A stretch of 64,000 nt of DNA, from positions 14,632,001 to 14,696,000 of the forward strand of contig CM069140.1 in the NCBI GenBank assembly GCA_035221665.1, read 5' to 3'. This stretch comes from Okamejei kenojei. Its lineage: Eukaryota. Below the pieces are notes generated by a model. It saw nothing but the letters and a program-made list of their open reading frames with translations. It made no database searches and was not told where the DNA came from. Positions 24,056-46,724 of this stretch are shown in pieces; position 1 is the stretch's first letter; the number at the start of each line of letters is the position of its first letter. The position numbers were made by a program, and so were the translations under genes.

Positions 24056-24182
24056 ATGCGAAATGAACATTGACGAATGTGCATCGAGCCCTTGTCTTAA
24101 CGGAGGCTTCTGCCAAAACCTGCCCCACCGGTTCCAGTGCATTTGTGACATGAACTTCGCCGGCGACCACTGCGAGTTTGAT
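24056..24182 (+). CDS. CRB1: CRB1 exon 11 (last EGF repeat), spliced form
   Basis: ttgcag|A to GAT|gtaagc; 127 nt, phase 2/0. [42 protein letters not shown]. Confidence 0.93.
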
Positions 24183-24293
24183 GTAAGCGACCTCTCCTTT
24201 TTCATCTCTTTATTACTCTGGCAGAACCTGTTCCAACTTCTTTCCTACCTCGTTCTGCGAATGGATGACGAGCCAGCAGTGGAATGGGCTTGA
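24183..24293 (+). CDS. CRB1: Exon 11 read-through extension: CRB1-B-type transmembrane segment and short tail
   Basis: In-frame continuation [36 protein letters not shown], closely resembling the mammalian CRB1-B C-terminus as recalled. AATAAA at 24541. Confidence 0.85.
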
Positions 24294-24949: not shown

Positions 24950-26150
24950 TCATCCTACTTTTAAAGAAAGGCAGGAGAGAGAAACAGGGAATTATAGACC
25001 AGTTAGCCCGACATCTCGATAGCAGTAACAGGATCGGTCCAAGTCAGCATGGATTTACGAAGGGGAAATCTTGCTTGACAAATCTTCTGGAATTTTTTGA
25101 GGGTTTAACTTGGAAAATGGACAAGGGAGAGCCACTAGATGTAGTGCACCTGGTCTTTCAGAAAGGTCCCACATAGGAGATTAGTGGGAAAAATTAGGGC
25201 ACATGGTATTGGGGGTAGAATGCTGACATGGATAGAAAATTGGTTGGCAGACAGGAATCAGAGAGTGGGGATTAACGGGATCCTTTCAGAATGGCAGGCA
25301 TTGAATAGTGGGGTACCGCAAGGCTCGGTGCCGGGACCGAAGCTATTTACAATATACATCAATGGTTAGATGAAGGGATTCAAAGTAACATTAGCAAATT
25401 TGCAGCTGACACAAAGCTGGGTGCCAGTTTGAACTGTGAGGAGGATGCTACGAGAATGCAGGGTGACTTCGACAGATTGGGTGAGTGGGCAGATGCATGG
25501 CAGATGCAGTTTAATGTGGATAAATGTGAGGTTATCCACTTTGGTAGCAAAAACAGGAAGGCAGATTATTATCTAAATGGTGTCAAGTTGGAAAAAGGGA
25601 AAGTACAACGGGATCTGGGGGTCCTTGTTCATCCGTCAATAAAAGTAAGCATGCAGGTACAGCAGGCAGTGAAGAAAGCGAATGGCATGTTGGCATTCAT
25701 GACAAGAGGAGTTGAGTATAGGAGCAAAGAGGTCCTTCTGCAGTTGTATAGGGCCCTAGTGAAACGACACCTGGAGTATCGTGTGCAGTTTTGGTCCCCT
25801 AATTTGAGGAAGGACATTCTTGCTATTGAGGAAGTGCAGCGTAGGTTCAAAAGGTATGGCGGGACTGTCATATGGTGAGAGAATGGAGCGGCTGGGCTTG
25901 TATACTCTGGAGTTTAGAAGGATGAGAGGGCATCTTATTGAAACATATAAGATTATTAAGGGTTTGGACACGCTAGAGGCAGGAAACATGTTCCCGATAT
26001 TGGGGGAGTCCAGAGCCAGGGGCCACAGTTTAAGAATAAGGGGTAAGCCATTTAGAACGGTGACGAGGAAACACATTTTCACACAGGGAGTTGTGAGTGT
26101 GTGGAATTCTCTGCCTCAGAGGGCGGTGGAGGCCGGTTCTTTGGCTACAT
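24950..26150 (+). mobile_element. CR1-clade LINE, degenerate RT region
   Basis: QHGFTKGKSCLTNLLEFFE, SGVPQGSV, WQMQFNVDKCEVIHFG and LYRALVKRHLEY motifs, with frameshifts and stops. Confidence 0.92.
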
Positions 26151-29100
26151 TTGGCTTCACCTTCAGTGCTGTAGCATAAACCGGTCTGTGATGATAAAGT
26201 GAAGGTCCCATCAAAATAAAGAGAAATGTACCATTAAATGGAACGGTTGCTGAGCAACCACAATATTCTCTACTTCCTTAAAACAAATAGTAAAGCATTA
26301 GATCTAAGCACAAAGTGCTGGAAATTCGCCTGCCCTTTCTCTTCACCTGCTGCATGAACCCCTGAGTTCCTCCAACACTGTGTGTTTTGCCCAAGATTCC
26401 AGCATGTGCATTTCCTTGCATCTCCAACCAATAGATCCAGGTTAGACACAAAATACTGGAGTAACTCAACGGTTCAGGCAGCATCTCTGGAGAGAAGGAA
26501 TGGGTGACGTTTCGGGTCGAGACCCTTCTTCTGAAACGTCACCCATTCCTTCTATTCAGAGATGCTGCCTGTCCCGCTCAGTTACTCCAGCATTTTGTGT
26601 CTGTCTTTGGTGTAAACCAGTACCTGCAGTTCCTTCCTGCACAACAGAGCCAGGAGTTCTGCAACTAATGACATTTCTCTTGGCTCAGATCACCCCATCA
26701 CTGATGCTTTTTTAAGCCTTTAAAACATGCTTTGCCTTAGTGATGGGGTGATAATTGGGCCCCGTTTACTTAAACATGTAATTCAGCAACAAATCACTCC
26801 CTTGAGTGGTTCATTCTCTCTGAGAAGACAGACGGATTTCCCCAAGGTTCAACTGAATCACACATTGTAAGCAGTGCTAAACATTTTATGGTTTTTAGGG
26901 AAATCCACAAGAGGTTACATTTGATTCTGAAACATGCTGAGTAAATTCTGCTTCAAAATGTATTTACACTAAGTTTAGCATTAATGCAGAGAGGCCTCAC
27001 TCTCACATGATGTTAAGCTTGTGATGTTTGGACGGGTACATGAGTAGGAAAGGATTAGAGGCATATGGGCCAAATGCAGGCAGGTAGGACAATGGGGCAT
27101 TTTGGTTGGTAAGGTTAAATTGGGCCGAAGGGCCTGTATCCATGTTGTATGCCTTTATGTGCAAATTAAGAATACCAAACCAAATCCGGGATTAAATGCT
27201 GTGAGTGTAGGTGAAACTGCAGATGCTGGTTTACACCGAAGATGGACACAAAATGCTGGAGCAACTCAACAGATCAGGCAGCATCTCTGGAGAGAAGGAA
27301 TAAGTGACGTTTCAGGTCAGAACAGTTCTTCATCTGCTGTGAGATTCTTTTCTAACAAAATCCCACTCATAATTTAGTAATTATCAAATTCAGACTACGT
27401 TTACGCTATTACTCCACCAAAATACAAAGTGCTGGGGGAGGTCAGTGGGTCAGGCAGCATCCGTGGAGGGAATGGACTGACAGTGTTTTGGCTCGGACCC
27501 TATCTAAACATGTCTGGAGAAGGGTACCGACCCAAAATGGTGTCTGTCCATTCCCACCACAGATGCTGCAGCCTGACTCGCTGAGTTCCTCCAGCACTTT
27601 TGTGTTTTCCTCAAGATTCTGGCATCTGCAGTTCCTTTGTGTCTCATTAACTCAAACTTAAGTCAGTGGAAAAATTAGATGGTTGCTCAGAGAGTCTACT
27701 CCAAATACCCCACACAACATATTAATAAACATATTAATAAAGATTTACATTCCTTTGATGGTAGTTGCAGTAAGTATCTAATATATCTCTCTGGCCAAAA
27801 AAATCCCTGATCTCCAAGTCAGTATTTCGCTAGTGGGTTAAGACTGATCATTAAGAAATCGTGTTAATTAAGTGCTATTTCTTATTGCTGCTTTTAACTT
27901 GAACAAAATTGTAATAATCATAAGTAGAACAACTGAGCACATTTTTTATTTTCTAATTCTATAAGTATTTATATTGAAGGCTCTGGTTGTTTATTTTATA
28001 TATGCCCATTTATAAATATTGTCTATTTTTCCTGTTGTATGAAATTATATTTTTGACTGGAAGTGAGACGGCCTGAATAAAGCATGATGTTAGCGCATTG
28101 TCAGGTAGCCACATGGGGTTGGATCGGCAAGCTTGCTACTATTTATGATGTTATTATAAATAATGGAGTTGCCCTGGTCAGAGGAAGCACAGACCAAGTG
28201 GAAATATAAAATGCACACAAAATAAAGTCTGAACACTGGTTTATTGAAAGAGTGGAAAAAAATATAGCCAAGGCAATACCTGGGTTGTTTAAGTCAATGC
28301 CTTGCCTTTTCCTTGCTTGTACGTAGAATTCCTGTATCTTCACTGTCGTGGGACTATAAAATTCCTCAATATTCATAAAATTTATAAAATAGAATGTGTG
28401 TGAACTAGATTTCCGATATTTCTCATTTATATTCTTTATTACTAACTTCACCAACCATGACTGCCATTCTGTGTCTCATCTCTGTGTCTGCGTTCATTTG
28501 GTTAAACCATTCATCATTTGGCTTATGGGAATGGCCAGTATTGTTTTTGCCTCTCGCTGCATGTATGGGAATCCACACTTTTGGGGTGGGCGCCCAGTGT
28601 TATCATTTGAAACCTTAATAAATGCACCATCATTGTTGTATCTGTGTGTCTCCATTTCTTGCGCTCTGTTTAATGTTGAACACGTGCACTGATAAAATAC
28701 ACACTGGAGTGAAATACCCTCTGTGTATAGGTGCTTGTATAATTCGTTGCGATCATTCTGGTCGCGTTATTGTACAACGCTCCCGATCCGTATTTGCCTG
28801 CGTCTCCAAATTCTTCCTGGACTACACCACTTTATTTTGTATTAATAGTTCTAACTTAATTTCGGTTACAAAGAAAGGACAGACGAATAGAGTTCAATGC
28901 TTCCCTGTGTGGAATCACATCAGTACGGGCACAAATTGTCTTTGTATTCAATCTCTATTAAACCAGCAGTACTATTTGCTTTGTATGGTGAAAGGGATGT
29001 TGAATATCAGAATAGAAGTAGTTAAACAGACATGGAAACACATGGGTAAATTACTGGCCATGTATTCAGAGACCAACAATATTTTAGATAAAAAAACGAG

Positions 29101-32530: not shown

Positions 32531-34744
32531 TGCCGGTCGTAAATAAAACATAACACAGCTTCCTGGCGAATGGGCCGTCAATGTTACATTAAAAGGAACA
32601 ACGTAACCTGGTGAACAATGAATAGGAATAAGGTAAAAATGATGATCAGTCAGTGAGAGAGTTGGGCAAGAAGGGAGAGTGGGACTTTGCAATGAATGGA
32701 ATGTGTAACCAAAGCGAAGATGAAAGGCAGGGAGAGAAAGGAAGGATTGGGCAGAGATATGTTGAATAAAAGGCATTAGCTAACGTGCCTGTCAGGAGAA
32801 GTCTCCATGTCTGAGGTCTTTGGCATTTTCTGGAGATTAAAATGATAATGCTTTGATTCATCACACACAGAGACTGGCTGCCAGCCCTCAGCTCGTTAAG
32901 CATCCCTGTGAGCAGGCACATTGGTGGGAGAGAGAGAGCAGTTTCAAACCTCGAGAACTATAAAATCTGCACGCAGATTTTATAGTTCTCGATTTGAATT
33001 GTGAAGAATTGAATTGTGTTGAATTCTCAGATTTGAATTGTGAAGAATTATGAACTATCAAAAGCCACACTACAAACACCAATTACATTTCAAACTACAA
33101 ACTGTCTTGTTGGACAAAGAACTTCAGGCTTTAGTGTTAAAGAAGGAACTGCAGATGCTGGAGAATCGAGGGTACACAAAAGGCTGGAGAAACTCAGCGG
33201 GTGCAGCAGCATCTAAGGAGCGAAGGAGAAGGAGGGTCTCGACCCGAAACGTCGCCTATCTCCTTCGCTCCTTAGATGCTGCTGCACCCGCTGAGTTTCT
33301 CCTGCCTTTTGTGTACCCTCAGGCTTTAGTTTTATGTTGCAGAATATTTAGACATTAGTTTGGAGATATAGCTCAGAAACAGGAGCTGCGGCCCATCAAG
33401 TCCACATCAACCAGCGATCACCTCATACACTATCCTGCCCACTGGGGCCAATTCACAATTTACAGAAGCCAATTAACCTTCAATCCCGCACATTATTGGA
33501 ATGTAGGAGGAAACCGGAGCAGCTGGAAAAAACCCACGCGGTCACAGTGAGAATGTGCACACTGCGTACAGACAGCACCCGTAGTCAGGATCGAACCCGG
33601 GTCCCTGGCACTGTTTTTCTGCGTTTTCATTTCATTTTGTTATCTATGACTAATGTGTTTTTAGACCTGTTGTGCTGCCGCAAGTAAGAACTTCATCGTT
33701 CTGTTTCGGTCCATGTGACAATAAACCACTCCTGACTCTTGACCAGGGAACATAAAGATTACTGGCCATAGACACAAAAAGCTGGAGTGACTCAGCGGGA
33801 CAGGCAGCGTAGCCTGGTGAACGATGAATAGGAATAAGGTGAAAATGATGATCAGCCAGTGAGAGAGTTGGGCAAGAAGGGAGAGTGGGACTTTGCAATG
33901 AATGGAATGTGTAAATGGAATTAAGGGACTGGAGAGAAGGAATGGGTGACGTATCGGGTCGAGACCCTTCTTCTCCACCCGAAACGTCACCCATACCTTC
34001 TTTCGAGAGATGCTGCCTGTCTCCAGCTTTTTGTGTCTATCTTTGGTTTAAACCAGCATCTGCAGATCCTTCCCACACATAGAGATTACTGGCAATGCAC
34101 TGTGAATGATTTGATGGTGTTACTTAATAAGCGGGTGGTTTTAATATACCAGGGAGAGTGAGGGGCTGAATGTGGGATTTGTTCACTGAATGCCTGCAAT
34201 GTGGGCAAGTTTTGATCTGCTAGTTACATATATATTTTATATCTGCTATGTAAAGCACTTTGACAATAATTTGAGTTTTATCTTGAAGGCATGTCTAGGT
34301 CATCCGTCATCTGCTCTAACAGAACATTTCATTTGGAAGAATTTTTGATATTTCATAGAAATGAAATTAATTTAATGTTCCTCCCATTCTCCCCTTCCTA
34401 ACTGTTGTAAATGTACGGGTGTGTAGAAATAGGAGTGGAGCGAAGGGCCTGTTCCCAAGCTGTATCTCTAATCTGATCCACTTGTACATTCACCCACGAG
34501 TTCATGAATTGCGCCACTTCTCAAAATACCTTGAGAAAACCCACTGAGCAACAATGATCAGATTTAATCAAACAATCAATTTACTGCCACCTTCACAAGC
34601 ATCTTGATGACAAGATTCAGGGCAAAGCATTAACACAAAGCTCGCTGCTCTATGCTCTTGAAAAGAAAGTAGCTCTTAATTTTTTTTTTGGATTAAAGTT
34701 TAAGATTGTTTTTTAAGGCAGGCCCAAGCCAGCAAAGGGGGGGG

Positions 34745-35136
34745 CCTTGCAGTCGGTGACGCCACAGGTTTCAGCCCTGCCTCTGCTCAGGTGTGGCAGT
34801 AACTTGACACCTGAGCCAGGTATCGGGTGGGTTCTGACAGAAATCGCTGGTTTTCAAAACTCACAGACAGAAACTAGCAGTCAAACCGGAAGCAGGGCTC
34901 AACGCAGAGAGGAGGAATATGTTCAAAAGAAGATCCAATGTCTTATGATTCTGAATAATCAACCACGCAGCTAAAGAACCAGGCATTAGTACGCTGCTGG
35001 CGTGCAGGTAACTCGTCACGCTGAACTGCAAGGTTCCTGTTGAAGGGTTTTAAGTTCCCCAGGACCGATCCCTTCAGAAATATTGCTCTAAACTTTGTGG
35101 ACTGGATTTTGAGCTGTGTAGCTATGGACTCGTAGG
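34745..35136 (+). promoter_or_regulatory. Putative promoter/5'UTR of the nested CRB3-like unit
   Basis: Repeat-free, locally GC/CpG-richer segment upstream of ATG 35137. TGACGC 34757; GRHL-like ACAGGTTT 34764; E/Z-boxes CAGGTG 34788, CACCTG 34808, CAGGTA 34817 and 35005; GGGTGGG 34825; ETS ACCGGAAG 34885. Confidence 0.45.
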
Positions 35137-35218
35137 ATGGAAGAACGATTTCTCCCTGGTTGTGGTTGGCTACTGGCCACATTACTTCTGCTGAAGGAAG
35201 GAGTTTTGCTCACACAAG
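35137..35218 (+). CDS. Nested CRB3-like unit, coding exon 1 (signal peptide)
   Basis: aggATGG strong Kozak. MEERFLPGCGWLLATLLLLKEGVLLTQ plus G|gtaatg; 82 nt, phase 1. Hydrophobic core typical of a signal peptide. Confidence 0.72.
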
Positions 35219-37079
35219 GTAATGAAACGTTTGCGAAAAGTAAAGGAAGTTACAGAAGTGGAAATGTACTTTTCCAGACCGTGCTGGATCGGATCATGGC
35301 AGAGGAAGTTAGTCTTAAAGTGTTAAGGAAGGAACTGCAGATGCTGGAGAATCGAGGGTACACAAAAGGCTGGAGAAACTCAGCGGGTGCAGCAGAATCT
35401 AAGGAGCGAAGGAGATAGGCGACGTTTCGGGTCGAGACCCTTCTTCAGGAAGTTAGTCAATGCTCGATATCACATTGAGAGAGTCATGCAACGTGGAAAC
35501 ACACCTTTCAACCCACTATGTCCAGTGCTGGCCATTAATGTTAATCTATCCCATATTCCACCATTTGGCATAATGTTCTACTGCATGGTTTAGCTTTAGT
35601 TCAGAGATACAGCATGAAAACAGGCCCTTCAGCCTACCCGAGGCCACGCAGACCACTAATCACCCATTCACACTAGTTCTAGTTCTATGTCCCTCTTTCT
35701 CATCCACTCCTTACACACTGGGGGCAATTTACAGAGGACCAATTAACCTACAAGCCTGCAAGTCTTGGGGTGTGGGTGGAATGCGGAGCACCCGGAGGAA
35801 CCCCACGCTGTCACAGGGAGAACATGCAAACTCCACACAGACAGGACCCAAGGTCAGGGTCGAACCTGTGTCCTTTGGCGATGTGAGGCAGCAGCTCTAC
35901 CACTCTGCTGGTGAATATATTTTTATTGGTGCATTTTGATCGAGTCTGTACCAAAAGCGAAGGTAGCTTGTGAGCAGCAAGGAAATCGTTTTAGGATGCA
36001 CAGTTTTTGAATAGAAATGTTGCCTTTGGTATCCCGATATAATCAAATTATTATATATTTCCACAAAGAAGTTTGTGCTAACTTGTCAATGTAGCGCTAA
36101 AAATAATTTTCATTTTGTATTTTAATAGTTGGCACCACTCTCTGGGAAAATATAATAATTGTAATATTTAATGTGGGATTAATTAAAGAAACAATAATTA
36201 CACATGAGATTAGCTGTGGGGAAAGATATTCCAAACATGTCAGCTCCATGCATTATCTCTTTTCCTCTTGTAGTAATGGAGATTAATCCTTGTGGTTAGA
36301 GTGGTGTACACATTCGCATCATAGCCATCGGGGTGACACAGTGGTAGAGTTGCTGCCTCACAGCACCAAACACCTTGGGTTCAATCCTAACTTTGGGTGC
36401 TGTGTTGTACATTCTCCCTACAGGGGTTTCCACCTCGAGTTCCTTCCTACACTCCAAAGACGTGCAGGTCTGTTGGTTAATTGGTTTTGGCAGTGTCCCT
36501 AGTGTGTAGGACAGTGCGCGTGTACGGTGAACGCTGGCCGGTGTGGACTCAGTGAGCCGAAGGCCTTGTATTTCTAAAGTTTCAAGATCATTTCACTGTG
36601 CACTCGGACCAAAATATTCAGCCCTGTTCCGTTCCAAGTAAGTTACTGTTCCAATTCCCGATCTGAACATATGTTTTGAGTGCATAGTGAAATGACTCGA
36701 GGGCTTGAGCTATACGGAGAGGCTAGGGCAATCCCTTGGCACGCTGGAGGCTGGGGGCTGATCTTATGGAGGTGTATCAACTCATGAGGGGAAGGCACAG
36801 AGCCTTTTACCCAGGGTAGGGGAATCAAGAACCAGAGGACATAGGTTTAAACTTTCTTTGGAGAATTGTTGGACTGAATTATTTCTACATTTTTGTAAAA
36901 ATACATTTGAACGAGTAACTATTCTAATTCACAAAGCAAATGAGTAACAAGCCCAATTAAGCCCATTCTGAGTCCAAATAGCTCACAGTTCTCAGTTCTC
37001 ACACAACAATGTACAGGGAAAAGCTTTGTTTTGCGAGCTGTGCAATCAGATAATAGTGCACGTGTTGTGGACAATAGTG

Positions 37080-37400
37080 GGCGGCACGGTGGCCCAGCAG
37101 TAGAGCTGCTGCCTTACAGCCCTTGCAGGACCGGAGACCCGGGTTCGATCCTGACTACGGGCACTGTCTGTACGGAGTTTGCACGTTCTCTCCAAGACCT
37201 GCATGCTTTTTCTCTGAAATCTTCGGTTGCCTCCCCCACTCCAAAGACGTACAGGCTTGTAGGTTAATTGGCATTGTAAACGTAAAAATTGTCCCTAGTG
37301 TGTGTAGGGTAGTGTTAATGTGCGGGGATCGCTGGTCGGCGCGGACCCGGTGGGCTGAAGGGCCTGTTTCCGCGCTGTATCTCTAAACTCAACTAAACTT
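37080..37400 (+). mobile_element. tRNA-derived SINE (HE1/V-SINE-like), representative copy
   Basis: A-box-like ggcacggtggcccagcagtag and B-box gggttcgatcc, conserved core, CR1-like tail ccgaagggcctgtttcc and (aaact)n. Other copies at about 8895, 30170, 31250, 36330, 45245, 52775 (+) and 13000, 13700, 19400, 33450, 35700, 53600 (-). Confidence 0.8.
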
Positions 37401-38959
37401 GACTAAATAGTGAAGCTGAATGTGCAACTATATTACCTCTTCATCAAAATACATGTGGTCAAATTGCAAAATCTCAAAGGTTAAAATTCAAAAAATAGCA
37501 TAAGGTTTTAGGATAGTGATTTACACAACAGTGCTTACTCATACAACATACAAGTTACTCGTTTGGGCTGCATTCCATTTGTTAGAATCAAGAATCTGAA
37601 CATCAACCACAACGACCCAGCTGCAAACAACATCATTTTTCACATCACAATTTAATACATCCAGTTGTTCTTACTCAGATCTCCAAATTCACCTTGTAAC
37701 CACAACCCAGGGTACTAAATGCCAAGGAATCTATGCAACACAAAGTGACCTGTTCAAAAGATACCCCACTGGTCACAGGTTTCCAGTCACAAAAGCAACC
37801 CTCCACCATCACCTTCTCCCTCCAGTCACCAAAACAATTCCCGATCTACTTTGCCCAAGACCCCATGGGTTCTTACCTTTAGGACCAGTCCTCCACCTGT
37901 GATCTGCTTTGTTGGAGTCCATGTAGACAACACAAAAGGACACATTCCATGTTCTCCAGAGATGGCCAGTCCCCACTCTGCCCGACCCGCTGAGTTACTC
38001 CAGCACTTTGTGTCCTTTTGTGTACTAACAAGCTTCTGTAGTTCCTTGTCTCTCCATGTAGACTACTTTAACTGCACTGTTATAGTTGGCCACCTATTCC
38101 AAAAATGCAATCAAATTAGTAGTTAATGTCATCATCAACATACGTTTATGTTGATGATGACATTATCATTATCATTATCAAGATTTATTTTTTAAATCTT
38201 AAAAAATAATTTAATGCTACATTATTGATCAAAGTGCACATTGGGAAGTCATAATTAAAGGTGATCATGGAAATACCAGAGCATCGGTGAATCTTTGCCT
38301 GATCCCAGTCCACACGCGATTCCAGGCATAGCAAAGGGGGTCTGAAGAAGGATCCTGACTCGAAAAGTCGTTTGCCCATTCCCTCCACAGATGCTGCCTG
38401 ACCTGGTCCTCTTTTGTGTTTTGTTCAAGATTCCAGCATCCGCAGTTCCTTGTCTCTAATAAGCAAGGGGATTAACTCTTTCCTGCCCTCTGTGGTGGTC
38501 TGCCGGGATTCTAATGGGGCTTTTCATCTCTGACCTTTGTCCTATCACCTGCCTCTCAACCCCCCTCCACCTATTACTCACCAGACTTTGACCTCCTTCT
38601 CCCACTCCCGCCCCCGCCCCCCCCCCCCTACAATCAGTCTGCAGAAGGGTCCCAACCTGCAACGTCACCTATTCATGTTCTCCAGAGATGCTGCCTGACC
38701 CGCTGAGTTATTCCAGCACTTTGTGGCTTCTTCTGTCTGCATTTTGGGTTGTTAATCTTGTTGGCAAAATCCACAACTTGGGAATAAATTAAAATGTTGA
38801 AAAAAGGAACTGCAGATGCTCGATTACAAAACAAAAACACACAAAGGACTGGAGTAACTGAGCAAGTCAGGCAGCATCCCTGAAGATAAAGGAAAAAAGA
38901 CAATTCAGGTCGAAAAATCTCCTCGATTAAAATATTGAGTCATTATGCCAGCTGATAAT

Positions 38960-40330
38960 AGACAATAGGTGCAGGAGTAGTCCATTCTGCCCTTCGAACC
39001 AGCACCACCATTCACTGTGCTCATGGCTGATCATCCACATTCAGTACCCTGTTCCTGCTTTCTCCCCATATCCCTTGACTCCGCTATCTTTAAGAGCTAT
39101 CTAACTCTCTCTTGAAAGCATCCAGAGAATTGGCCACCACTGCCTTCTGAGGCAGAGAATGCCACAGATTCACAACTCTCTGGGTGAAAACGTTTTTCCT
39201 CATCTCCGTTCTAAACGGCCTACCCCTTATTCTTAAACTGTGGCCCCTGGTTCTGGACTCCCCCAACATCGGGAACATGTTTCCTGCCTCCAAGTGTGTC
39301 CAATCCCTTAATAATCTTATATGTTTCAATAAGATCCCCTCTCATCCTTCTAAACTCCAGAGTATACAAGCCCAGCAGCTCCATTCTATCAAAATATTAC
39401 AGTCCCGCCATCCCGGGAATTAACCTTGTGAGCCTACGCTGCACTCCCTCAATAGCAAGAATGTTCTTCCTCAAATTTGGAGACCAAAACTGCACACAAT
39501 ACTCCAGGTGTGGTCTCACTAGGGCCCAGTACAACTGCAGAAGGACCTCTTTGCTCCTATACTCCACTCCTCTTGTTATGAAGGCCAACATGCCATTAGC
39601 TTTCTTCACTGCCTGCTGTACCTGCATGCTTACTTTCAGTGACTGATGAACAAGGACCCCCAGAAGTTGTTGTAGTACATCCCCTTTTCCCAACTAATCT
39701 GCCTTCCTGTTTTTGCTACCAAAGTGGATAACCTCACATTTAACCACATTAAACTGCATCTGCCCACTCACCCAGCTTTGTGTCATCTGCAAATTTGCTA
39801 ATGTTACTTTGAATCCCTTCAGCTAAATCATTAATGTATATTGTAAATAGCAGCGGTCCCAGCACCGAGCCTTACGGTACCCCACCAGTCACTGCCTGCC
39901 ATTCTGAAAGGGACCCGTTAATCCCTACTCTTTGCTTCCTGTCTGCCAACCAATTTTCCATCCATGTCAGTACCCTACCCCCAATACCATGTGCTCTAAT
40001 TTTGCCCATTAATCTCCTATGTAGTACCTTATCAAATGCTTTCTGAAAGTCCAGGTACACTGAATCCACTGGCTCTCCCTTGTCCATTTTCCTAGTTACA
40101 TCCTTAAAAAAATCCAGAAGATTAGTCAAGGATGATTTCCCCTTCGTAAATCCATGCTGACTCGGACCGATCCTGTTTACTGCTATCCAAATGTGCCGCT
40201 ATTTCATCTTTTATAATTGACTCCAGCATCTTCCCCATCACTGGTGTCAGGCTAACTGGTCCATAACTCCCTGTTTTCTCTCTCCCACCTTTCTTAAAAG
40301 AGGGATAACATTAGCTACCCTGTAATCCAC
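38960..40330 (-). mobile_element. CR1-clade LINE, 5'-truncated and degenerate
   Basis: YLDFQKAFDKV, LVRPHLEYCVQFWSP and ESRTRGHSLRIRG, with 3' tail near 38960. Confidence 0.92.
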
Positions 40331-41317
40331 AGGATTGATACATTCCCCAAAATCTTCACAATGTTTTTATCCAGTTTGTCTTAGATTTAATAGTTTGCTC
40401 TCTAATTCATAGCCAAATACACGACTTAAAATAATGTCTTGGTGGCCAAGAATATCTGGAGATCTATAACATAAAGCAGGACTGGAGTGGGCAAATGGGA
40501 CCAGCATAGTTGGGGCATCTTGGTCGATATGGTCAAATTGGGCCGAAGGGCCTGTTGCCGTGTTGTATGCTCTATGACTGTGAGTACTACATTAGAGGGT
40601 AATACCAAGGAATTGGTTGAGGCAGGTACTACAAGGGCATCTAAAAGACCCTTGGGATATGGGCCAAACACGGGCAAATGGGACTGGCTTAGATCGGGCA
40701 TGTTGGTCAACGTGGAGGGATTGGGCTGAAGGGCCTGCTTCAGCCAAGCTAAACTAATCTCTACATGTTCAAGATCCATATTCCCCCATTCCCCGTATAT
40801 CCCATGTGAATATCTAAAAGCCTCAAATGCCACTTTTGTATCTGTTCCCACCATTAGGCTCCACATTTTCAGGGGGACTTCCCGGGGGGGGGGTGGATTT
40901 TTAATCCAGATTACAATGGTGGGTGGGAGGATCCACCAGTTGCCAGAAAATTGCTGGTGAGCCTGCACTTCCATCAGGTCTCTTCAGCAACTCCAGCGTT
41001 TCAGAGAAAACTATCCAAGGAGCAGCCGCACCTGTCTGGACAACAGTGTCAACAGTGTCAGTGGTTCTGCCAACAACCTCTGGTCCCCGCACTTCCACTT
41101 CCAGAACACGTTCCTGCAACAATGGCAACATTCACCAAACAAGTTCTCCACTCCATTATTCATCCACTCGTCAAAGAAAGCCTGCAATATAAGTACATTC
41201 TGCACAACGAGTTCGTCAGGGACAGTTTGGTGATTGCCGTTTAAAGCTCGGTAGCTTGTAGATGTAAACCTTCAACGTTCCAGTACTGTCTTCATGTTAG
41301 TGTTGGTTCCTTTACAG

Positions 41318-41370
41318 CAGTGAATGTAACAGACTCTACACCTACAACGAATGCTGCTAACACATCAACA
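41318..41370 (+). CDS. Nested CRB3-like unit, coding exon 2 (short Ser/Thr-rich glycosylated stalk)
   Basis: ttcctttacag|CA to ACA|gtaagt (consensus donor); 53 nt, phase 1/0. (A)VNVTDSTPTTNAANTST with NVT and NTS sequons. Bridges the flanking exons in frame. Confidence 0.75.
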
Positions 41371-41482
41371 GTAAGTTGATAGATTTCAATTGACCTAATC
41401 TTAATATGGACGGTGGGTTCAGCCTAAGTCTGCTTCTAAGGAACACTCTGCAGAGGATTGAGTTAAAAACTGTTTCGGGTTA

Positions 41483-42303
41483 TGTCCCCTGTCCCACTTA
41501 GGAAATCTGAACGGAAACCTCTGGAGACCTTGCCAAAGGTTTCCGTGAGGTTCCCGGAGGTTCCGGTCACTCTCCGTAATGGCGGAAAGTGGTTTCCGCG
41601 TAGTCGAGGCTTCTTCTATGTTTCTGCGATTATTTAAAAAAAAACGAAGCCAGCCTCGACTAAAAATAGGTTGCCGTTTGGCCGAAGCCAGTGGAGTGGG
41701 GTTGCTATTTACTTACAGGCAGTCGAAGGCAGTCTCCTTCGCTGATCGGCCATTTTGATAGGTTCATTGGATTTTTCGGCAAATGTCGGCTCTTTGGTTT
41801 TCAGGACCTAGAAAATCCGCCGGAAGATAAAATGCCCGTTAACTTTATTAAACTTCTTAAAACTGTCTCCGCTCCTTCTCCCCCCCCCCCCCATTCTCTC
41901 CCCTTCTCTCTCCCCTTCTCCCCCTTTCTCTCTCCCCTTCTCTCTCTCTTTCCCTGTCCTTCTCTCCCCTTCTCTCCCTCCCTCTCTCTAAGGGACTTAC
42001 CGTGCTCTGTGGCAGCCGTTTACCTTCCTCTTCATCGCGCAGACAGCGCTCCTCCGCTGTCCCTGGCCCCCACCTTCGCGATGTGTTTGTTTGTGTGCGT
42101 GTGCGGCCGGTAGCAAAGATCCTGTAGGATCTTTGATCAGTAGATGCAGCTCACACTTCGGTCGAGGCTTTCCAGACAAGTGACCAAAACCTCTGGTGAC
42201 TCCTGGAGAGTGGCCGGAACCTCCAGGAACTTCACGGAAACCTTTGGTGGGGCGCAAGGTCTCCAGAGGTGTCTGATCAGGTTTCCTAAGTGGGACAGGG
42301 ACA
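41483..42303. mobile_element. Non-autonomous DNA transposon with ~90-bp imperfect TIRs
   Basis: tgtcccctgtcccacttaggaaa...cactctcc at left and ggagagtg...tttcctaagtgggacagggaca at right. Flanked by (t)ta and ta(a). Confidence 0.75.
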
Positions 42304-44334
42304 TAACAATGCAGGTTTCAGTCCAACTCTGCTTTTACGGAACAGTTCGTAAAGGACTGAGATAAAAACTGTTTGGGTATGCCAACTGATCTTCCAATTG
42401 TCAGTCAGAAGATACCATAAGATTAATGCAGTTTAAGAAGCTTTATGAATTGAAATGAAGGCAAATTAATGCAATGAAATGCAGCACCCAGCTACTGTGT
42501 GCATGCGTGCATGCCATTTAAGAGGAACTCCATTTCAGTTTTGAAGCCTTCCTTGCTTTTGTTGTGGAAATACTTCTGATATAGAAGGGCACCATGTTCA
42601 TAACAAGTCTTGAATTAGATAACAAAAATATTACTTTGTTTTGCATGAAGTATTACAACAGGATTTAATGTGGAACAATGTTTGGGTCAATGTTTCGAAC
42701 ATTTGGCCTATCAGGTCTACTCTGCCATTCAATGATGGCTGGTCTATCTTTCACTCTCATTCTCCCCGTAACCCCTGACACCGGTGCTAATCAAATGCTT
42801 CAAATCAGACGCATAAAGATAAGGGAGTTAAACAGGCATGATGTAAACTGCAGCACATTTGTAACTCTATTGCTACTGGTCAGGACTCAACTTGCAGCTT
42901 CAGTTCATCCTTAATCTTCAGTTACGCCCGAATATACAGTTCCATGGAAAGTGTCTGAAATTGTGCCTTCAGCAGGCAATGTGCGGCGGCTGGAGTTCGG
43001 ACAGATCCACGTGAGATCACAGTCTCCCTGAGGTGACAACACTGGCCACATTTAGAGTATTGCGTGCAGGGCTGATCTTAAAGTCTTAAGTCTGGTTGCC
43101 CCATCATAGGAAGGATGTGGCAGCTTTGCAAAGGGTGCAGAACAGATTTATCAGAATGATGAAACAAAGAAATGCAGATGCTGGTTTATACCAAAGATAG
43201 GCACAAAGTGCTGGAGTAACTCAATGGGCCGGGCAGCATCTCTGGAGATAAAGGTTAATGTTTCGGGACGGGACTTTTATTCAAACCCTTCTTCTGTCTG
43301 AAGAGAGGTCCTGACCCGAAGCGTCTCCAGCACTTGTGTCTATCTATGGTATTTACCAGAATGATGCGAGGATTAGAGGGTGTTAGTTATAAGGAGAGGT
43401 TGGATTGTTTTCTCTGGAACACTGAAGGTTGAGGGGAGACCTGATAGAAATATATAAAATTATGAGAGGCATAGACAGGGTAGACACTCAGAACCTTTTT
43501 GTCAAAGGCCAAGGAACATAGCTTTAAGGTGAGAGGAGCAAAGTTGAAAGGAGATGTGTGGGGAAAGTGTATTTTTACACAGGGGGTGATGGGTGCCTGG
43601 TACATGCTGCCATGGGTGGTGGTGGAGGCAGGTACAATAGTGGCAGATAAGAAACGTTTGGACAGGAACAAGGATATGCAGGGAATGGAAGCGTCTGGAT
43701 CACGTGCAGCCAGATGAAATTAGTTTAACTTGGTATCACGATCGGCACATATATTATGGGGTGAAAAGCCTGCTCCTGTGCTGAAAAGATGTAAAAAGAT
43801 TATATAGGTTTAGGTTTATTATTGTCACATGCACCTTTGTACAGTGAAAAGCTTTGTTTTGCTTGCTATCCAAATAGGTCAGATAATACTATCTATAAAT
43901 ACAATCAAATCAAACTCGAGTATAATAAATAGAGCGAAGAGGAAGACGTGTTTTAATGTGCGGGGAAGTTGATTGTATCTCTAAAAGTTCTTAAGTTTCT
44001 AAAAGTAAATATGTATCCAAATAATAAGTGGAACATTTGAGCTAATAGGATTCAGCATTGAAGACAGTTTTTTAGCTCATCGAATATGTGCTCCATGTCC
44101 AAAAGAGCATTCCTATTAGTCCTAATTCCCCATATCCTTGCAAATATTTCCTTTTCAAGCATATAGCAATTTTCTTTTTGAAAATTATTTCTGAATCTGC
44201 TTCCACCACTCTTCAATGTAGCGCAATCCAGAACACGAATATGTTTTTGAATTAGAGAAACCAGTTTGGGCTTTTGGTACACAAAATGTTTGTGAGGGGC
44301 TCTCTAATTGTAAAAATGTGGATTGTTTTCACAG

Positions 44335-44559
44335 GCAACCCCCCCGCCAGCTAGCAGAGTTAACATTGCAGCCATAGTGGCTCCCTGTGTCATTGGTGGG
44401 GTGATCGTTTTAGCTATCATTCTGACTGTTCTAATCTTGAAGCTACGCGAGAAGCGTCAGACTGAAGGGAACTACAGCCCAAGCAACCAGGAGCAGACTG
44501 GATCCCGGATGGAGATGAACAACGCCCTAAAACTCCCACCCGAGGAACGTCTGATCTGA
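44335..44559 (+). CDS. CRB3/CRB2-type transmembrane and cytoplasmic terminal exon (FERM-binding motif, ERLI PDZ motif)
   Basis: Branch point ctctaat then gttttcacag|GCA, phase 0. [74 protein letters not shown]. Confidence 0.9.
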
Positions 44560-44746
44560 TGTGTTCAACTTAGGGGTCAATGTTGGAAGAAGTCAACAGA
44601 CCCCAGGTATTCCTTGTGCTACCCAACAATTTGGGATTAAAGAAAAACTGTGAAGCTCTGTGCATTTCTTTAAACCAAGGCAACTTCCAAAACGAACCCC
44701 CAACGCGGGTCGTCCATAAATGTGTAACTGTTTTGACTCTTAGCAG

Positions 44747-44962
44747 GATGTTGGTGCTTGGAGCTCAGAGATTGTGCCCTACACAGGGCTGGTCGTCGCC
44801 ATGCTGTCGCTGACCCTGTTTCTCGTCCTCGCCGCCACCGTCCTCGCCCTGAGCAGGAGAGCAACGCACGGAGCCTACAGTCCGAGCCGGCAGGAGAAAG
44901 AAGGGTCACGTGCGGAGATGTGGAACTTGGTGCCACCACCACAGGTGGAAAGGCTTATCTGA
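44747..44962 (+). CDS. CRB1: CRB1 canonical terminal exon 12 (TM and cytoplasmic tail, ERLI)
   Basis: tagcag|GAT, phase 0 (alternative AG at 44743). DVGAWSSEIVPYTGLVVAMLSLTLFLVLAATVLALSRRATHGAYSPSRQEKEGSRAEMWNLVPPPQVERLI*. The SRQEKEGSRxEMWNL string is diagnostic of CRB1. Confidence 0.93.
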   Translation, partial: DVGAWSSEIVPYTGLVVAMLSLTLFLVLAATVLALSRRATHGAYSPSRQEKEGSRAEMWNLVPPPQVERLI

Positions 44963-46724
44963 GGGGGCCTTGGCCAACACGTCCCACGGTTTGTTGGCAC
45001 ATCACTGCCCATGCCTAGGCTGAGCACCATCCCTTGCTGCGTCCCACAAATACTGCTTTAACAGGTATTGAACACTTGCCTTGCATTCACTCAAGTGGGT
45101 CACACCAGCCAAGCCCACCTTTATTACTAATATCCAACAGCCCCTTAGATGGTGCTGGTGAACTGTCTTCTTAAACCCTGAGCAGTCAACACAGTGATAA
45201 TACCCTCACAGTGCAGTTAAATGGGAGGTTAAATGGGGCAAAACTGTGGCGTGGAGTTCGAGCTGCTGCCTCACAATGCCAGAGCCCTGGGTTTGATCTT
45301 AACTCTGGGATGCTGCCTGTATGGAGTTTGTACATTCTCCCTGTGACCTTATGGGTTTCCTCCAATGCTCTGGTTTCCTCCCACATCTCAAAGCCATACA
45401 GGTTTGCAAGTTAATTGGCTACTGTTCCAGCTTCGATCAAATTTAATCTGTCTATTGCCCAAATACTTAAGAACACTCAGAGCTATAGTAACTCAGCAGG
45501 TCAGGCAGCATCTCTAGAGAACATGGATCAGCGATTTTTCAGGCCGGGACCCTTCTTAGCTATGCTTGAAGAAATGTCCTGACCCAAAATGTTATCTATG
45601 TGTGTGTTTTGTTGTAAACCAGCATCTGCAAATCCTTGTGTCTACTTAAAAATACTATTAATAATTGCTCTTCCTTTCCACAAAGCTGTCGACAGAAATT
45701 AGATCACAATGCTAATATGTAAGTTATGTGAATACAGAATGTACACAAATACAGGAATAAGCTATGAAATTGGACGGTTCAGCCAAGGCAAAATGTTTGC
45801 GTACCGATAACTCGTAACTTAGGGGTGCCTCTAAGTTATGAAAGAGCAAATCGCAAACTGCTGGAGGAACTTGCTGGGTCTGGCAACATCTGTCAATGGA
45901 ATGAACGGGCGACATTTCAGGTCGGGACCCTTCCTCTAACCAATGAAGTTGGATTCCAACCCAAAAAGTCGTCAGTCTATTCCCTGCACAGATTACCTCC
46001 ACAGATACTGCCTGACCTGCTGAGTTCCTCCAGCACATTGCATTTTTCTCAAGATTCCAGCATCTGCAGTACCTTGTGGCTCAGCTGTTAAGAAGGAATA
46101 AGATGGTCAGAAATGGAGCTTCCAATTCCTCCATGTGGAGTAGAATTGAATCTAAGGCATTTAAGCTGGGGAAGATGCTAAAACTGTTAGCATTTCTGTG
46201 GTTACAGAAACTTGGAGGTTTTGTGCTACAGCAGAGATTTTCAGTGTAACTTGCCCAAGACCAGTCAAACCAGAGGCAAACTATGACAGAATTATGTTAT
46301 GGTTAGTGCAATTTGTTCCTGTGATTTTTTAAATTGTTTTAAAATTAAGATGGAAGATGGGAGATTATAGTTCTGCCAACAAGCATTAACTTGAGTGTAA
46401 ACATGAGAAAGTTAAAATCTCAATCCTGTTACTATACAATACAATACCGTTTATTGTCATTTGAACCTCATTGAGGTTCAAACGAAATTTGGTTTCTGCA
46501 GTCGTACAAACAAGAAAAGAACCAAGACACAACGCAATTGACACAAACATCCACCACAGTGAATCTCCTCCTCACTGTATTTCAGCTGGACAGGGTGGTC
46601 ACTTTTCTGTGTTTTTTGTCATTGTTCCAGGTTCAGATTCTTTCCAGAGTCTCTCTCAGTGCCCAGTCACAGTTCTGGGTGCTTTCAACACCAGCAGCAG
46701 ACACCTCAGCCCTCTGGAAGAGAG

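Follow-up and report, generated by a model that had tools for sequence, protein, structure and literature searches.

A short Crumbs unit in the last intron of CRB1 of Okamejei kenojei, a probable relic of the ancestral vertebrate Crumbs gene

The eye-disease gene CRB1 of Okamejei kenojei harbors in its last intron, on the same strand, a three-exon unit for a short Crumbs protein of CRB3 type. The unit lies in a window of 64,000 nucleotides (nt), C10:14632001-14696000 in the 2.76-Gb genome assembly, and coordinates without prefix count from the first letter of this window. We consider it probable (about 0.75) that the chondrichthyan CRB1 locus gives rise, from an internal promoter, to this short transcript, which is real, spliced and conserved, and that the unit is at the same time a remnant of the ancestral Crumbs gene of vertebrates. 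That the short Crumbs product is real is, in our judgment, close to certain. Its parts, i.e., a CRB3-like protein, an alternative promoter and an alternative last exon, are known, while the arrangement and its history are new.

Results

The unit consists of the exons S1, S2 and A (Table 1), which assemble into 360 nt and encode 119 amino acids (aa) with zero internal stops; all splice ends are AG/GT and the phases are compatible. The coordinates, sizes and phases that the initial annotation had given for three exons with canonical splice sites are exact. Its 119-aa open reading frame (ORF) with signal peptide, Ser/Thr-rich stalk with two sequons, transmembrane (TM) helix and Crumbs tail was reproduced with identical translation, and the hydropathy profile, by which signal peptide and TM helix were judged, agrees with it: an N-terminal peak of 2.28 (11-aa window, residue 9) is followed by a main peak of 2.93 (19-aa window, residue 62). 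The stalk sequons are N30 and N42. The tail of 37 aa carries Tyr10 and Glu16 of the FERM-binding motif (numbering and role according to PMC4359734) and ends in the PDZ-binding ERLI. It matches Drosophila Crumbs in the PDB entries 4WSI and 4YL8 (E-value 8e-10; 8.3e-10 for 4WSI), while exon A gave no Pfam match above the cut-off. Lacking EGF and LamG domains and combining a signal peptide with a short glycosylated stalk, the protein has a CRB3-type architecture. The acceptor of S2 is tandem, with a second AG three bases further on at 41321, and in the protein record of a Mobula isoform (117 aa) just the first S2 residue is missing, which fits the use of this second acceptor. Four short upstream ORFs (3-9 codons) are located in the 5' untranslated region (UTR) at 34919-35135 on the + strand.

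Table 1. Coordinates of the short unit and of the CRB1 features around it
Feature	Coordinates	Strand	Description
Likely promoter region (putative)	34700..34798	+	Contigs start at 34799 (X6) and about 34839 (X1); E-boxes at 34788 and 34808 flank the 5'-most end
S1 (short-unit exon 1)	34799..35218	+	Coding part of 82 nt beginning at ATG 35137; signal peptide; ends AAG/GTAATG; phase 1; 5' UTR at least 34799-35136
S2 (short-unit exon 2)	41318..41370	+	53 nt; TTTACAG/ and /GTAAGT; phase 1/0; Ser/Thr-rich stalk with two N-glycosylation sequons
Exon A (last exon, type A)	44335..44559	+	225 nt after TTCACAG/; ends TGA; phase 0; TM helix and 37-aa Crumbs tail
3' UTR of the short unit	44560..45341	+	Single contigs of X1, X2 and X4 extend from A across the whole of B; further, separate contigs reach 46470
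CRB1 exon 11 (last EGF)	24056..24182	+	Ends in phase 0; in frame with exons A and B, out of frame with S2
Exon 11 read-through	24183..24293	+	Third hydrophobic C-terminus; same ending in RefSeq Mustelus CRB1
Exon B (last exon, type B)	44747..44962	+	Canonical CRB1 TM and tail; phase 0

Transcription of the unit is indicated by contigs from 4 of the 17 listed sequencing runs, from species related to O. kenojei, which were aligned to 33000-46500. In run X6 one contig of 897 nt (record 25) aligns with 34799-35216 and with 44343-44757, the two segments being separated by 60 letters. This gap corresponds to S2 plus unaligned edges, either as 2+53+5, if the species lacks the extra codon of O. kenojei, or as 2+50+8 with the acceptor at 41321. 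In run X1, pieces of one depth (24.7) stop at 35217 and begin at 44335, both of which are splice sites, and continue to 45341, while record 22 of run X4 covers 44336-45340 plus 56 further letters. Taken together, the X6 gap, the X1 piece ends and the X4 read suggest that in two organisms from two studies an RNA has its start within the intron, undergoes splicing and retains exon B as part of its 3' UTR. Of the junction S1-S2-A that the initial annotation had proposed to check, the joining of S1 to A across a gap of S2 size is thus seen in the X6 contig, S2 being recognized by the length of the gap. The possibility raised there, that exon A is spliced only from CRB1 exon 11, is contradicted by the X6 contig, which extends from exon A into S1. 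Since exon B is read through as 3' UTR, the short unit is best described as an internal-promoter unit that shares the 3' end of CRB1 and not as a fully enclosed gene. ATTAAA at 44636 was rejected as main 3' end, as the contigs seen read past this site.

An internal promoter is inferred near 34800. Its likely region, 34700-34798, holds no TATA box and has a CpG observed/expected ratio of 0.49. The two E-boxes around the 5'-most contig end are weak evidence because 41 such hexamers occur in the window. In humans, E-boxes mediate the repression of CRB3 by SNAIL (PMC8624420).

The unit is furthermore conserved in cartilaginous fish. With exon A as the sole query, a protein search listed 69 of 70 candidates. 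Its five best matches (84-91%) are proteins of 118-121 aa named 'crumbs homolog 3' or 'crumbs homolog 3-like'; a shark '3a' group, set apart from these, comes next at 61-66%. Eight species (Mustelus, Carcharodon, Narcine, Mobula hypostoma, Hypanus, Hemiscyllium, Rhincodon and Callorhinchus) form the 'crumbs homolog 3-like' group, and the gene model is therefore already public in RefSeq (XP_078074271.1, XP_041064320.1, XP_069793962.1, XP_062919932.1, XP_059840686.1, XP_060686160.1, XP_048458202.1, XP_007893872.1). These models from automatic annotation represent the same gene as the short unit, whereas the names they bear are silent on its place in CRB1, on the shared exon and on its origin. 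Some labels are naming traps: CRB2 of Heterodontus (horn shark) and Heptranchias is labeled 'crumbs homolog 1-like', and the nested unit of the whale shark 'crumbs homolog 3a'. Identity to the seven shark and ray proteins amounts to 14-20 of 27 residues in S1, 9-14 of 18 in S2 and 63-68 of 74 in A; the chimaera model, which has a different start and shares exons 2-3, reaches 6 of 27, 8 of 18 and 62 of 74. Thus the frame and conservation of the first two exons, proposed as a check on the unit, are kept in seven shark and ray species. The proteins of the window are closest to cartilaginous fish, exons 1-2 closest to rays, and in Mustelus and Hemiscyllium the short-unit and CRB1 records lie on contigs of equal length. 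Because S2 is out of frame with CRB1 exon 11, long CRB1 cannot explain the conservation of S2.

The host gene is CRB1: its two large exons share 59% and 65% identity with a RefSeq CRB1, compared with 34% and 43% for shark CRB2. Its last intron (intron 11) spans 20,564 nt, and the stop codon of exon A lies 187 nt before the acceptor of exon B. The ends of long CRB1 were compared in 29 long shark records from a set seeded with exon A, four members of one cluster lying outside this list: 14 end in exon A, 6 in exon B, 1 in the exon 11 read-through and 8 otherwise. A clean join of exon 11 to A is found in 11 of these 29 records (7 species), and exon A hence appears to be an alternative last exon of full-length CRB1 as well. 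The initial annotation had described a complete gene unit nested in the last CRB1 intron; same-strand location, conservation and splicing stand, but neither does the third exon belong to the unit alone, given these 11 records, nor is the unit fully enclosed, given the RNA that reads through exon B. Four of the eight other endings are RRI or QRM, which, judged from the peptides that S2 would yield, fits an exon 11 spliced out of frame to S2. Such a join would give a CRB1 product without tail, either secreted or decayed; in the O. kenojei genome it leads to an immediate stop.

The exon 11 read-through we take to be an end of CRB1-B type. If so, the CRB1-B isoform type would date back to sharks. 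CRB1-B has its own conserved C-terminus (PMC7335077). The equivalent exon of CRB2, at about C33:10093583-10093505 on the - strand, shows a similar, shorter read-through, hinting at an end of CRB1-B type older than the split of CRB1 and CRB2.

CRB2 carries the same pair of last exons. In Heterodontus, isoform X1 of CRB2 ends in the usual CRB2 exon (A-type) and isoform X2 in an exon of CRB1 type (B-type); this protein is 57-64% identical to the C33 locus of O. kenojei versus 34-43% to the window. On C33 itself a decayed B-type exon, split by two repeats, is located at 10088135-10087573 on the - strand, 1.8-2.4 kb behind CRB2 exon A. Its gapped protein-to-DNA score is 115, compared with maxima of 71 among 364 control tiles and 69 among 300 query shuffles. 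The whole-genome protein-query search did not report this relic, whereas local tblastn and the chain score did. CRB2 intron 11 was also scanned for a signal-peptide exon; of the five candidates, all weak and located at three ATGs, none was accepted. As the order A-then-B is found in CRB2 too, exon A of the window would stand at the place of an ancestral exon.

In total, the genome contains four Crumbs tail exons: A and B on C10, that of CRB2 on C33 and that of CRB3 on C36. A separate CRB3, which the initial annotation had suggested to look for, is thus present on C36 and adjoins a DENND1 gene, as human CRB3 adjoins DENND1C. Its coding exons of 70, 53 and 195 nt have the phases of S1, S2 and A; the middle one was the sole candidate found by the scan. 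All three Crumbs loci lie tail-to-tail with a DENND1 exon (C10:14786322, C33:9852767, C36:4231092), and the C33 exon is identical in 33 of 33 residues to the DENND1A chain in PDB 6EKK. According to Lamb (2021; PMC8040251), DENND1A belongs to quadruplicate A, DENND1B to C and DENND1C to D, with the branching ((A,B),(C,D)) and the (A,B)/(C,D) split at the first duplication. Following these assignments, the CRB1 and CRB3 regions would be sisters from the second genome duplication. With DENND1B and DENND1C being such sisters, CRB3 is probably the stripped-down sister of the short unit. A CRB3 region on chicken chromosome 28 found no support, as the corresponding row in Lamb (2021) puts DENND1C on gar LG6. 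The available part of Simakov (2020) does not name the Crumbs/DENND1 loci.

Jawed-vertebrate CRB3 in its ERLI form (the C36 gene and shark 'crumbs homolog 3a') resembles the product of the short unit, with about 100-120 aa, signal peptide, glycosylated stalk, one TM helix and a 37-aa ERLI tail. Three coding exons with phases 1, 1/0 and 0 and a middle exon of 53 nt are common to the C36 gene and the unit. Unlike CRB3, however, the short unit resides inside CRB1 on C10 and shares its last exon with long CRB1, and its exon 3 is identical to shark CRB3 at only 44-48 of 74 positions. Nor does it occupy the stand-alone CRB3 locus on the DENND1C side, a place held by the C36 gene. The short unit would work like CRB3, yet by position it is not the CRB3 ortholog. 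As a side observation, the first coding exon of CRB3 occurs twice on C36 (4254784 and 4263104, - strand), 8.3 kb apart and with an identical run of about 270 nt, which is either a recent duplication or an assembly artefact.

Of 266 proteins compared, three have an A-type motif before a B-type tail: two from bony fish, namely KAG7487592.1 from tarpon and A0A3B3ZAZ1 from mudskipper, named 'Crumbs homolog 3b', and one unnamed ORF that resembles the tarpon protein. The tarpon protein comprises a signal peptide, stalk, TM helix and degenerate tail fused to the last CRB1 exon. Its segment scores 109-116 against the nested exons and at most 89 against other tails, while the mudskipper segment scores 98-100 against the nested exons and 97 against coelacanth CRB3. 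Such chimeric models imply that a CRB3-like segment and a CRB1 tail are adjacent, and they suggest relics of the short unit in bony fish. The earlier remark that no description is known from bony vertebrates is accurate insofar as a literature search of papers available without subscription found no publication that deals with tandem tail exons or with a short Crumbs nested in CRB1; the absence from bony vertebrates itself may not hold, given the tarpon and mudskipper models. When further proteins related to the tarpon unit were sought, nothing but the unit itself was recovered (1 of 73 candidates); its Atlas label 'Protein crumbs 3' (0.94) serves as a lead only. Zebrafish crb3b was ruled out as a nested unit: it maps to chr1:55.51 Mb and crb1 to chr22:23.47-23.52 Mb, beside dennd1b (PMC5690287 supplement). 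In the same supplementary table, which covers only expressed genes, no other gene starts or ends at chr22:23.45-23.49 Mb.

Trees were calculated from TM and tail (66 columns), the first with 63 rows and the second without three long-branch rows (tarpon unit, hagfish and one unnamed protein); two B-type CRB2 rows are unnamed proteins labeled by likeness. The A-type clade unites the usual CRB2 end, the nested exons, CRB3 and, in the first tree, hagfish (98/95; second tree 98/92), and the B-type clade the usual CRB1 end and the second CRB2 end (99/92; 97/88). Jawed-vertebrate CRB3 forms a clade without the nested exons (91/91; 97/95). In approximately unbiased (AU) tests, A and B of CRB1 as one clade were rejected (p-AU 0.030) and those of CRB2 narrowly so (p-AU 0.045), while a clade of the nested exons and the tarpon unit was not (p-AU 0.235). 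Exon A is 40% identical to B and 58-63% to CRB3 proteins. Crumbs tails thus sort by exon type and not by gene. Hagfish has a 125-aa 'crumbs homolog 3'. The second genome duplication is confined to jawed vertebrates (PMC7269912), so that with hagfish included the short form is probably older than this duplication. The stalk of the hagfish protein is cysteine-rich, unlike that of the jawed-vertebrate short forms.

Discussion

We propose that transcription starts in intron 11 near 34800. S1 is then spliced to S2 and S2 to A, and the RNA continues through exon B as 3' UTR, as the contigs show apart from the letters of S2. The predicted product is a Crumbs protein of membrane type I that is free of EGF and LamG domains. 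From family knowledge, its 37-aa tail is expected to bind PALS1/Par6 via ERLI and FERM proteins via Tyr10/Glu16, and a CRB3-like job may be envisioned: apical identity and junction organization without extracellular adhesion. Long CRB1 would, going by RefSeq models, end in three ways, in A, in B or in the exon 11 read-through.

Concerning the origin, a tandem duplication of the last exon (A then B) may have preceded the first genome duplication, and the unit S1-S2-A would have been in place before the second. CRB2 would then have kept A as its main end, with B still annotated in the horn shark and present as a relic in O. kenojei, while the CRB1 locus of cartilaginous fish would have kept everything. 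The sister copy of CRB1 would have lost the long part and exon B and become CRB3, and mammalian CRB1, by its described isoforms, would have kept B. We thus lean toward a single ancestral Crumbs locus of vertebrates that combined a long ectodomain with two tail exons in tandem and a short unit in its interior, and of which CRB1, CRB2 and CRB3 are three different prunings. The tails of human CRB1 and CRB2 would accordingly stem from different exons that are older than the genes, CRB3 would be the surviving half of the sister copy of CRB1, and a short Crumbs would still reside in the last crb1 intron of some teleosts, unrecognized or mislabeled.

Several points weigh against this interpretation. 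The transcript runs consist of contigs guessed to be RNA, come without tissue, strand or level, and X1 and X4 are flagged 'probably DNA'; moreover, the tables of joints and loose ends were filled by repeats, and S2 is recognized by the length of a gap. The join of exon 11 to A is known from RefSeq models alone, as the stretch used for contig alignment excluded exon 11. The teleost evidence comprises two chimeric gene models and one unnamed ORF, all at the protein level without DNA. The trees use just 66 columns, their outgroup consists of unnamed proteins assumed to be invertebrate Crumbs, and the clade of nested exons and CRB3 reaches only 90/86 and 91/87. In addition, the DENND1 exon tested does not separate the paralogs B and C on C10 and C36, and a clade of the nested exons with shark CRB3 alone was not rejected in either AU test (p-AU 0.238 and 0.358).

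This last result would be expected if the short unit were a later copy of CRB3, brought into CRB1 intron 11 of an early cartilaginous or jawed fish by segmental transposition or by conversion between paralogous regions; the nearly identical TM starts of the nested unit and CRB3 and the 53-nt middle exon of both point in the same direction. Nevertheless, we consider such a copy unlikely: the order A-then-B is found in CRB2 as well, shark and bony CRB3 group together at 97/95 without the nested exons, the nested exon gives the highest scores with the teleost segments that precede the CRB1 tail, and an insertion at exactly the paralogous spot would be improbable. Even less credible is a local origin, in which exon A would have arisen from the last exon of CRB1 itself by tandem duplication, become similar to CRB3 by convergence and acquired new 5' exons. 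While the two exons are 187 nt apart and of the same phase, the clade of both was rejected for CRB1, exon A is closer to CRB3 proteins than to B, and the exon phases match those of CRB3.

We give equally little credence to exon 44335 being merely an alternative last exon of long CRB1, with the short transcript minor or unproductive. The exon is indeed joined to exon 11 in 11 of the 29 long shark records listed, no protein evidence exists for the short unit, and its 5' UTR has four upstream ORFs. However, the reading frame, the signal peptide and the sequons encoded by S1 and S2 are maintained in sharks and rays, a join of exon 11 to S2 would break the frame, and the X6 contig through exon A runs into S1 and not into exon 11. 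Hence a real short product and an ancestral unit remain our preferred interpretation.

Other short Crumbs forms differ from this unit. CRB1-B keeps much of the ectodomain. Like the short unit, CRB1-B (Ray et al., 2020; PMC7335077) and zebrafish Crb2b-sf (PMC5676222, PMC11129452) are shorter Crumbs forms that begin at a second start site and carry a signal peptide of their own. However, Crb2b-sf lacks only the first 11 EGF repeats, whereas the short unit is devoid of any EGF or LamG domain, and CRB1-B is without FERM and PDZ motifs, while the short unit has both in a full Crumbs tail. CRB-3 of Caenorhabditis elegans (PMC4359734) is likewise a short Crumbs, of 100 aa with Tyr10 and Glu16, but it has no signal peptide and ends in EGLI.

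The proposed history offers a testable answer to the question of how the tiny CRB3 arose from a large Crumbs. If it is true, the tail of CRB1 differs from those of CRB2 and CRB3 because it is a different ancient exon. Cartilaginous fish would derive four full-tailed Crumbs products from three genes, and splicing would decide which of two tails long CRB1 carries. In work on fish, knock-outs of crb1 and probes for it that are placed near the 3' end could also affect a short second product.

Besides the short unit, intron 11 contains retroelement fragments of LINE type (about 25100-26200 and 39050-39700), and many short interspersed repeats. Further downstream, an open frame of 184 codons at 62260-61709 on the - strand, rich in Ser, Pro and acidic residues, obtained no name and is possibly a 3' exon of the neighboring DENND1 gene.

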